The notes below the pieces were generated by a model. That model had not been told where the DNA came from and did no database searches. It saw only the letters and a list, made by a program, of their open reading frames with translations. Made by a program: the position numbers and the translations under genes. From Calditrichia bacterium (GTDB lineage: Bacteria > Calditrichota > Calditrichia > RBG-13-44-9 > J075), in contig JBOEGD010000027.1 of assembly GCA_050633245.1 (NCBI GenBank), positions 40,339-104,338 of the forward strand: a stretch of 64,000 nucleotides of DNA, written 5' to 3'. Of the stretch, positions 49,559-51,046 are shown piece by piece (the first letter of the stretch is position 1; the number at the start of each line of letters is the position of its first letter).

Positions 49559-49933
49559 ATGAAATTTTTTGCAAAAATTCTACTTTTCAGCTACTTCCTT
49601 GGTATTCTAACACCGGTTATACCGGTAATTGATTTCCAGATGCGCTGGGACTATATTGCCAAAAATCTCTGTGTTAATAAAGATAATCCAATCTCTACCT
49701 GTGCAGGAAAGTGCTATCTGAACAAAAAGATCAAACAATCCTCCGATGAAGGCGAGAACAACCCGACTTCAAGCAGTCAGCTTCTTGCAAAAGACAATTC
49801 ACCTCATTATACCACAACGGGGATAGATTATGCAGGACGACTGCAGACACTACATAAAAACCCCGTCGTAGCAACAACCCTTTCTCCACAGCACGATCCT
49901 TCAATAGAAATTCCCCCTCCGCAATTCTCCTAA
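49559..49933 (+). CDS. Small Cys-containing membrane-targeted protein ending in PPP; candidate regulatory leader (uORF)
   Basis: Hydrophobic N-terminus, YIAKNLCVNKDNPISTCAGKCYL, C-terminal EIPPPQFS; first gene of the mbnP-mbnH locus. Confidence 0.75.
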   Translation: MKFFAKILLFSYFLGILTPVIPVIDFQMRWDYIAKNLCVNKDNPISTCAGKCYLNKKIKQSSDEGENNPTSSSQLLAKDNSPHYTTTGIDYAGRLQTLHKNPVVATTLSPQHDPSIEIPPPQFS

Positions 49934-50176
49934 ATCAACATCGATGCTACTCGGTATCACGCGTTTTAAGATACGCTATCCTGTTGGGCAATTATTGCCT
50001 CACAGCGCCCCGTTATATGTCAATAACGATGTATTATAGCGCATGCTCTATACATTTCAGCGTCTTGCTGAAGGTGAGTCGTTGTGTGAAAAAATGCGTG
50101 ATGTTCTGAAACTTATTCATCAATTGGGAAAGAATCTCAATTGTTAATCGCAAAAAATTGATTTGGAGAAGTCATA

Positions 50177-51046
50177 ATGTATAAAAACGTATTAGTTGTA
50201 TTAATCTCAACTTTACTGATGCTTTTTTCATCCTGTAGTGATGACAGTAATCCGGCAGACATTCAGGAGACAGGAAACTTTGATGTCCAGTTTTCAAACA
50301 TGGTCGGTAGTCAGCAAATGACTTTAGAAGATAGAGGATCAGCAAACTTTATGTATACCACCGGAACCGGTCAGCAGTTTAACTTCTCACTGTTCGGTTA
50401 CTATGTAAACCGTATCGTTTTGGAGGGACCGAATGGCGAATACTTTGCAGATGAGATGAACGTGAGTGCCAATGCGGACGAAGTAAAAGGCTATTATCAT
50501 GTGCTTCAGAGTGATCTCCCGTCGACACGGCTGAACCTGACCGACGTTCCGGTTGGCATCTACAATAAAATCACCTTTACCATTGGTATCCCGGAAGAAG
50601 GCGTGCAGCAGGGAGCGGCCGGCGGTGTTCTTGATCCGGCAAATGGCGCCTGGTTCTGGAACTGGAATGCCGGTTATATTGGTTTTGCAATGGAAGGTGG
50701 AGCAGAAGATTCTCCGCAGGAATATGTAGATTGGGGGGGCGGTAACACAACTCCTGCGAACTCTTTTGCAGTTCATGTTGGTGGTTGGAAAGATCTGCCG
50801 GCAGACTCTACCGGCGTGCAGCGATTTGTAAACAACGTTAAGACGATGACCCTCAGCTTTGGGACGACCGTAGAAGTTGCAGAGAACCTGACACCTGAAG
50901 CACATATTGTTGTAGATGCGCTAAAGCTGTTGAACGACTCCGCACTAGACTTTTCGACAACGTATGCTGTTCACTCACCCAGCTTAGGCGCTCCTTTCGC
51001 AGATGAGCTAAACGGAGTATTTATTTTAGACCACGTACATCAATAA
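50177..51046 (+). CDS. mbnP: MbnP family copper-binding lipoprotein
   Basis: Lipobox FSSC, YYV..I.L, G.LDP..GAWFWNWNAGYI (WxW motif), HVGG; upstream of a diheme enzyme. Confidence 0.82.
   Translation: MYKNVLVVLISTLLMLFSSCSDDSNPADIQETGNFDVQFSNMVGSQQMTLEDRGSANFMYTTGTGQQFNFSLFGYYVNRIVLEGPNGEYFADEMNVSANADEVKGYYHVLQSDLPSTRLNLTDVPVGIYNKITFTIGIPEEGVQQGAAGGVLDPANGAWFWNWNAGYIGFAMEGGAEDSPQEYVDWGGGNTTPANSFAVHVGGWKDLPADSTGVQRFVNNVKTMTLSFGTTVEVAENLTPEAHIVVDALKLLNDSALDFSTTYAVHSPSLGAPFADELNGVFILDHVHQ

Follow-up and report, generated by a model that had tools for sequence, protein, structure and literature searches.

We examined the head of an operon in a 64,000-nucleotide stretch of DNA (the window) from contig JBOEGD010000027.1 of a Calditrichia bacterium (GenBank assembly GCA_050633245.1), where a 124-aa open reading frame (ORF; 49559–49933) precedes mbnP and is best explained as a regulatory leader rather than an ordinary structural gene. 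An earlier note on this DNA had proposed that the leader controls mbnP through a long-range RNA switch acting on the Shine-Dalgarno (SD) sequence, and all of the coordinates and letters on which it relied proved correct. The operon (49559–53073), like every window feature described below, lies on the plus strand. The leader is followed by mbnP (50177–51046, ATG at 50177; 289 aa with a lipoprotein-type signal; PF20243, E 6e-37), a gene for an mbnH-like di-haem peroxidase (51059–52159; PF03150, E 6.5e-50), and a gene for a 305-aa protein (52156–53073) that has a Cys-rich N terminus with a CCDVCGC motif and no Pfam match. The MbnP protein scored 29.7 bits against the equivalog model TIGR04052 (cut-off 140) and the MbnH-like protein 216 bits against the hypothetical equivalog TIGR04039 (cut-off 362.85); hence, we regard them as members of the MbnP and MbnH families, not as proven equivalents. 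The 305-aa protein, which may be an outer-membrane copper channel, aligned by BLASTP (27% over 155 aa, E 2e-6) with a barrel from locus L022 that matches PF13557, and barrels of this type directly follow leaders in other genomes. Upstream of the leader there is no same-strand neighbor, the adjacent gene in the ORF map being on the opposite strand, and a consensus scan alone identified a sigma-70-like match (TTGACA-18-TATGGT, 10/12 matches; 49370–49399) as a possible operon promoter.

The leader protein combines a hydrophobic N terminus, a cysteine motif, and a proline-rich end. Its N-terminal segment (approximately residues 6–25; 49574–49633) is predicted to be an N-in/C-out signal anchor or signal peptide, that is, an export signal, on the basis of hydropathy and of AlphaFold2 helices within residues 2 to 28. 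The motif C38-x9-C48-x-G50-x-C52 (49670–49714), the last part of which is CxxxC, follows the hydrophobic segment, and the protein closes with PPP at residues 119–121 (codons 49913–49921) and the tail Q-F-S-stop, just as the earlier note had described. AlphaFold2 with the family alignment (mean pLDDT 75.6) gave helices only at residues 2–17, 21–28, 30–37, and 51–66, with coil thereafter. Among 123 diverse family members, which are 19 to 48% identical to the window leader, a 19-aa hydrophobic window of transmembrane grade starting near residue 5 was present by hydropathy in 93%, and the N-terminal flank was the more positive side in 89%; this positive-inside bias places the Cys motif outside the cytoplasm. 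A complex prediction for MbnP with leader residues 29–124 returned a score of 0.02, which is evidence neither for nor against an interaction.

The leader belongs to a large family that the databases do not name. No Pfam (E ≤ 0.01) or NCBIfam model matched the window protein, while a word-index search recovered 32 homologues of 95 to 138 aa. A scan of one genome per species yielded at least 553 confirmed members among at least 599 candidate stretches, and the best 80 of these loci carried Bacteroidota-type titles except for one metagenome-assembled genome labelled Beijerinckiaceae. An exhaustive profile search counted 7,358 representative clusters with a cut-off of E ≤ 1e-3 and, with the stricter E ≤ 1e-10, still 4,290. 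In a protein atlas the closest named clusters were DUF6660 and DUF6769 (both at 0.89), which we treat as leads only; DUF6769 matched one of the 32 members, with an E value of 0.088. Family members occur in 93/101 genomes of one flavobacterial genus and, for a second family, in 62 of the 151 genomes that were sampled; a single genome has as many as five copies. Locus L035, titled Beijerinckiaceae bacterium, where two members of the family precede a TonB-dependent receptor, may represent a misassigned bin or a foreign contig. The window's phylum comprises 86 species genomes in the collection and, at that size, is not the large Bacteroidota. The genome of the window is atypical of the family, because a leader copy was found in only 4 of 61 relatives, itself counted. 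It also holds a second copy on another contig (C23:26788–26979) that ends in ...LFRPPQLT. The concentration of the family in Bacteroidota together with its presence in this genome suggests either a family extending across the Fibrobacteres-Chlorobi-Bacteroidetes (FCB) group or horizontal acquisition.

Only C38, C48, G50, C52, P119, and P120 are invariant in the 123 diverse members; therefore, the conservation anticipated by the earlier note holds for the three cysteines and for PP, but not for the third proline of the window's PPP. In all 148 distinct members read from fetched loci, PP lies within 17 residues of the C terminus, followed by two residues in 69 members, three in 28, and four in 23 (120/148 together), and a phenylalanine occupies the second position before PP in 126/148. 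The family sequence at this point is F-[HRKVQ]-P-P, the window leader has I-P-P-P, and CruR has R-A-P-P. PP follows the last Cys at a distance of 64 to 72 residues (median 66), while the intervening linker is the least conserved part of the protein; this spacing is held constant as in the family of CruR, where its value is 45 ± 1–2. An ordinary globular protein would not readily account for the combination of a fixed length, a variable and disordered linker, an exported Cys site, and PP beside the stop codon.

The genes that follow family members were compared by BLASTP clustering of 64 of them, which gave 31 TonB-dependent receptors, 11 MetA-like barrels (with a weak Phenol_MetA_deg match), 10 MbnP proteins, 9 genes grouped with a scanned representative of YtkA-like type, and 3 others; among the 9, one carries fn3 and a type IX secretion system sorting domain instead. 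Spacers between leader and next gene had medians of 148 to 182 nt in the four main downstream classes and of 216.5 nt in the class termed other. Some Weeksellaceae-type genomes contain two tandem leader paralogues before one mbnP (L048, 3434–4348; also L137, L142, L144, L072, L073, and others), with tails of ...FHPPLI and ...F[RK]PPxx, and in these the start region of mbnP pairs with the adjacent leader only.

The RNA helix proposed for the window is present in its sequence and in most of its predicted folds. The last two sense codons of the leader, the stop codon, and the 5 nt beyond it (49925–49938) are the reverse complement of 50158–50170, a segment that contains GGAG at 50165–50168, located 9 to 12 nt 5′ of the mbnP ATG; the arms form 13 pairs, all Watson-Crick, with one bulged T at 49931. 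That GGAG is a genuine SD is borne out by genome statistics: GGAG, GAGG, or AGGA occurs at positions –18 to –4 in 41.7% of 2,552 long ORFs in the window's genome (GC 45.3%) compared to about 6% at control positions, and a G peak is found at –9/–10. We had entertained the objection that Bacteroidota lack SD sequences, which would void an anti-SD element, and rejected it on account of this clear enrichment. The assembly yielded no 16S rRNA gene. In six of seven folding windows, the mean pair probability of the helix was 0.87 to 0.94. The duplex of the two arms was calculated at –14.0 kcal/mol (p ∼0.01 against 300 dinucleotide shuffles), a modest value for a single locus. The stop region was the best partner of the mbnP start region within 49400–50120 by only 0.3 kcal/mol, with the next places at –13.7 and –13.6, and 1.45% of 1,444 background windows paired as well. 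The 5′ arm begins 4 nt past the PPP codons, which is 6 nt short of the stop codon. A ribosome covers about 15 nt of mRNA downstream of its P site; thus, the arm falls within the stretch expected to be covered by a ribosome located at PP.

The 243-nt spacer between the leader and mbnP (49934–50176) is itself structured, as judged by its fold z-score and inverted repeats. The fold of 49880–50200 was more stable than 99 of 100 shuffled sequences (z –3.1), and the minimum-energy fold has a long central stem formed by a 12-nt inverted repeat (49956–49967/50091–50102; 92% complementary, arms 123 nt apart). The hairpin at 50121–50129/50135–50143 noted earlier also exists. A second SD-complementary stretch at 49881–49888, with TTCTCC at 49882–49887, lies approximately 43 nt from the copy at 49925–49930 and is an alternative partner of the SD. 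Rfam gave no match at gathering thresholds for the whole window or at E ≤ 1 for 49850–50250, and neither a promoter-like nor a terminator-like site was found by consensus scan on the plus strand of the spacer.

We asked how often such pairing recurs at other leader junctions, matching positions –25 to +10 of the next gene with a leader segment that opens 3 nt ahead of PP and extends 12 nt beyond the stop codon. A preliminary comparison of matched with mismatched duplexes over 84 loci was significant but confounded by GC content; it was set aside and replaced by dinucleotide shuffles, control gene pairs from the same loci, and within-group permutations. The stop-region/start-region duplex exceeded the shuffles in 20/84 loci at p ≤ 0.05 and in 8/84 at p ≤ 0.01, whereas the control pairs did so in 6/106 and 0/106, respectively (Fisher p 4.7e-4). 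The signal at p ≤ 0.05 was concentrated upstream of MbnP genes (10/13), with smaller fractions for TonB receptors (7/35), YtkA-like proteins (2/12), barrels (1/14), and others (0/10). Nine of the 12 other MbnP-linked records repeat the geometry of the window, where one of the 12 is an upstream tandem leader and not the adjacent one. At the second leader copy of the window's genome (L085), which is followed 108 nt on by a MetA-like barrel gene, the helix was not seen (p 0.76).

Covariation was assessed without alignment by swapping partners among orthologous leader-mbnP loci in 20,000 permutations. For 16 loci of one flavobacterial genus, the arms paired with their own partners at –12.0 kcal/mol versus –7.9 ± 0.8 kcal/mol when swapped, and for 21 loci of a second family, the corresponding values were –9.1 and –5.8 ± 0.5 kcal/mol; in neither lineage did any of the 20,000 permutations reach the observed value. 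Both sides changed at 9 helix positions in the genus and at 10 in the second family, as exemplified by a stop codon that went from TAA to TAG and was matched by a U to C change in the 3′ arm. The region 12 to 75 nt upstream of the stop codon, used as a negative control, showed no swap signal (p 0.69 and 0.44 in the two lineages). In all three lineages the geometry is alike, with a 5′ arm that starts 0 to 8 nt before the stop codon, just past the PP codons, and a 3′ arm that ends no more than about 10 nt from the AUG. The second anti-start-site element of the window (49881–49888) had no conserved counterpart in the two other lineages. An RNAalifold analysis of the MAFFT alignment of the 16 genus loci identified a 5-pair internal hairpin (alignment columns 118–133; spacers L101–L116) with changes on both sides at all five pairs, indicating that the leader-mbnP spacers carry further conserved structure. 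The stronger support for the helix comes from its recurrence and covariation in other lineages, not from the window locus alone. As for the covariation that the earlier note had called for, it is found at leader-mbnP junctions in two unrelated lineages, but most loci outside mbnP lack the helix.

We propose that the leader senses metal co-translationally in the manner of CutF and CruR, with a ribosome that dwells at PP, beside the stop codon, opening a long-range helix that masks the start of mbnP, and we consider the chances of this mechanism to be even. We infer the pause, the metal binding, and the direction of control, which would operate as follows. The leader would be inserted or exported co-translationally by means of its N-terminal hydrophobic segment, and its three-Cys motif would be periplasmic while the ribosome, some 66 codons further on, is still at the invariant PP (PPP in the window leader), 2 to 4 codons before the stop. 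The end of the leader ORF, with its stop codon, and a few bases beyond it would pair with the mbnP start region (here the SD), which would keep mbnP masked unless a ribosome is there. Slow passage or arrest at PP would prolong occupancy and open the helix. Binding of a metal, most likely copper, or formation of a disulfide at the exported Cys motif would alter the ribosome dwell, and translation of mbnP, mbnH, and the barrel gene would thereby follow periplasmic copper. By analogy with the uptake operon of CruR, we would guess that expression occurs at low copper, since the downstream genes look like copper acquisition functions.

Several observations weigh against this proposal, and the first of them concerns how the SD would be released. 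The earlier note had expected that blocking 49905–49938 in the fold would free the SD; instead, with one stalled ribosome modelled in this manner, the SD remained 98% paired (0.02 unpaired), now with 49881–49888. A terminating ribosome left it 0.11 unpaired. By contrast, equilibrium folding with a stalled and a queued ribosome raised the unpaired fraction to 0.61, and full coverage of the ORF gave about 0.6. The same TTCTCC (49882–49887) competes in the folding window 49880–50200, where the pair probability of the helix was lower, at 0.48. On the family scale the helix is not general and is uncommon outside the mbnP-linked loci, and 12 barrel-linked paralogues of the same flavobacterial genus show none. 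RNAalifold on the genus alignment missed the closing helix, as the arms are out of register in that alignment. Full-length folds with at least 6 expected stop/start pairs were as frequent for leaders (30/76) as for control pairs (33/87); this ensemble measure did not separate the two groups and was dropped as uninformative. The counts of both-side changes given above were taken from the best duplex of each sequence and lean towards structure for that reason. No close relative of the window locus was found among 61 related genomes and 8 metagenome loci (the closest leaders, P0002 and P0003, are 46 to 48% identical to the window leader), and the covariation is known from other lineages. Three poly-A RNA runs carrying the same species label had 0 reads on 49300–52300, which bears neither way on expression of the operon. 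Finally, PP is followed by diverse residues (K, I, N, Q, V, S, and more), which are not limited to those of the strongest polyproline stallers. The interpretation as an analogous switch thus retains its family membership, invariant Cys and PP residues, fixed spacing, operon position, helix, and covariation in other lineages, all observed in silico, but its single-ribosome unmasking step fails in folding.

More broadly, and with distinctly less assurance than we attach to the mechanism at mbnP, these leaders could represent an independent origin of co-translational sensing of periplasmic copper, in a second family that is widespread in Bacteroidota and present in neighboring phyla. Such a family would use a nascent chain of about 66 residues as a ruler from the exported three-Cys site to the PP arrest point. 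At mbnP operons the covarying long-range mRNA helix, closing spacers of 89 to 470 nt, would turn ribosome dwell into exposure of the start site. The polarity would be opposite to that of CutF, considering that acquisition genes (MbnP/MbnH and TonB-dependent receptors) are governed. In the window's genome, where the SD-complementary site is duplicated, release would require ribosomes to queue.

Among the other explanations, the one that fares best, which we nevertheless consider unlikely, is that the leader is a working copper-binding chaperone or tether anchored in the inner membrane, with a disordered, constant-length tail that reaches across the periplasm and a C-terminal F-x-P-P that docks on the outer-membrane or lipoprotein partner encoded downstream; there would be no regulated pause, and the helix would serve only to couple translation for stoichiometry. 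The predicted fold of the N-terminal 66 residues, obtained with good confidence, and the invariant Cys motif are consistent with a working protein; the downstream partners are all of outer-membrane or lipoprotein type, a constant linker length would suit spanning of the periplasm equally well, and the phenylalanine two positions before PP resembles part of a short linear docking motif. Yet the location of the invariant PP, 2 to 4 residues from the stop and directly before a covarying arm, matches the build of known arrest leaders, no sequence is conserved in the linker, and simple coupling needs no long structured spacer.

We regard as rather less probable still that control at the locus is mainly exerted as in CruR, such that the C-rich 3′ end of the leader is a Rho site covered during the PP pause, termination by Rho in the spacer ensues once the pause is relieved, and the helix is secondary. 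By base counts, a C-rich, G-poor tract of rut-like composition extends over the 3′ end of the leader ORF (49840–49957), with 31 C versus 7 G in 49860–49937, and across the 84 loci the last 78 nt of the leader ORF have a median C/G ratio of 2.05 compared to 0.95 early in the ORF and 1.07 in the next gene (Wilcoxon p ∼1e-13). This skew is partly due to conserved His and Pro codons and to the Ser/Thr/Pro/Gln-rich linker. The spacers are long, most loci linked to TonB receptors lack the helix, and CruR acts in this manner on a TonB-dependent transporter operon (PMC9426467); the covarying helix at mbnP junctions would be left unexplained. A Rho component may, by analogy, add a second layer to the dwell-dependent opening of the helix that we favor and, at loci that lack the helix, may be the principal means of control. 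That the complementarity at the window locus is mere chance, with mbnP served by its own signals and the small ORF a simple neighbor, seems very improbable, given that the geometry recurs in most MbnP-linked records and covaries in two lineages and that the consensus scan found no promoter-like site on the plus strand of the spacer, notwithstanding the modest single-locus statistics, the two upstream places of nearly equal energy, and the origin of the covariation in lineages other than the window's own.

The novelty implied by the earlier note has to be narrowed, as CutF-like proteins in Bacteroidota were already listed by Öztürk et al. in 2023 (PMC9973294). That paper describes 5,334 rule-based CutF-like proteins in 29 clusters, 19% of them from Bacteroidota (40% when normalized), as well as spacers that are mostly below 100 nt, and its authors hold that unfolding of the stem-loop probably operates over short spacers only. 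The rules comprise a length below 150 aa, PP in the last 15 residues, an N-terminal signal peptide, and a same-strand gene within 1,000 nt (PMC9973294), and the window leader conforms to them with 124 aa, PPP at 119–121, an N terminus that hydropathy marks as a likely export signal, and mbnP on the same strand 243 nt on. In view of the Bacteroidota share, the leader family may already be within the supplementary list of that study. What appears new is the definition of the family (invariant Cys3, G, and PP with a ruler of 64 to 72 residues), its size, its link to MbnP/MbnH, and the covarying long-range helix. A search of the literature on DUF2946, CutF-like proteins, MbnP/MbnH, DUF6660/DUF6769, and arrest peptides, which did not extend to supplementary lists, found no study of this leader family. 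If the proposal is correct, metal-sensing arrest leaders would not be a peculiarity of proteobacterial DUF2946 proteins but a recurrent solution, used by thousands of sequence clusters in a family without a database name. It would also provide a testable model for the control of MbnP/MbnH and TonB-dependent copper uptake in Bacteroidota and their relatives and imply that, by means of a closing helix, the influence of a stalled ribosome can extend to a start site hundreds of nucleotides distant, which the CutF authors considered improbable for long spacers. The spacing of 64 to 72 residues would then serve as a natural experiment for gauging how long a nascent chain must be to reach from the peptidyl-transferase center to the periplasm.

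The earlier note had placed the leader in a family different from the DUF2946 proteins that include CruR, and the comparisons agree. PF11162 was matched neither in the window protein (E ≤ 0.01) nor in the 32 members (E ≤ 10), and no protein in the window's own genome exceeded its cut-off. DUF2946 was likewise not found in the L035 genome. An hhalign comparison of the 123-member profile with a single DUF2946 sequence (P0182, from locus L163) gave a probability of 2.1%, and a word-index search with P0182 returned only itself. Locus L163 (67–351), from a genome of the same order as that of the window (G028), encodes a genuine DUF2946 protein (94 aa) that has CPVC and ends in RAPP plus three residues, and its gene is located 60 nt upstream of one for a 355-aa barrel-like protein. 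Both leader families are therefore present in the window's phylum. On the features examined, the family is best read from its sequences as resembling CruR and CutF, a kind of leader so far studied in proteobacteria alone, while not being a detectable member of DUF2946.

The published systems show where the likeness begins and ends. Leaders of the CruR/CutF class are small exported proteins with a Cys motif and a proline motif 2 to 3 residues before the stop, and they head copper operons; CruR acts via Rho and CutF by melting a stem-loop that shields the SD (PMC9426467, PMC9973294, 10.1101/2025.02.05.636593). The position of the window leader as first gene of a copper-type operon, ahead of a long spacer, is shared with this class. 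CutF of Rhodobacter capsulatus (cutFOG) is similarly small and exported, with CxxxC and with PPP or PP 2 to 3 residues before the stop, and there too the SD or start of the following gene is hidden in an mRNA helix that a ribosome at the leader end would open (PMC9973294, 10.1101/2025.02.05.636593); the mature CutF protein is reported to be undetectable or rapidly degraded. Unlike CutF, the family described here has no detectable PF11162 homology, its C-x9-C-x3-C stands just after the membrane segment at a spacing of 64 to 72 from PP, and its helix at mbnP is long-range, closing spacers of 89 to 470 nt, where that of CutF is a local stem-loop. The gene downstream of CutF encodes a detoxifying oxidase, whereas acquisition-like genes follow the leaders of the present family, and the polarity may be opposite for this reason. 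CruR of Bordetella pertussis (bp2923, DUF2946) shares with the family an export signal, a Cys motif, a PP close to the C terminus (three residues from it in CruR), a conserved Cys-to-PP spacing, though of another length, a long intergenic region, a C/T-rich stretch in the ORF, and its place at the head of a TonB-dependent transporter operon, and MbnPH-like genes are among the neighbors of cruR homologues (PMC9426467). The two differ in that CruR has CXXC and RAPP 45 residues apart and relies on Rho termination, whereas the leader family has F-x-P-P at about 66 residues and a covarying helix that masks the start. SecM-secA, MifM-yidC2, and VemP-secDF2 resemble the proposal in that their nascent chain is exported and has a C-terminal arrest motif and that the stalled ribosome opens a helix over the next start, but they sense export capacity instead of metal, are unrelated in sequence, and use local helices. 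As in these unmasking arrest leaders, one arm of the window helix lies inside or just ahead of the footprint expected for a ribosome at PP, with the difference that a single footprint leaves the SD paired.

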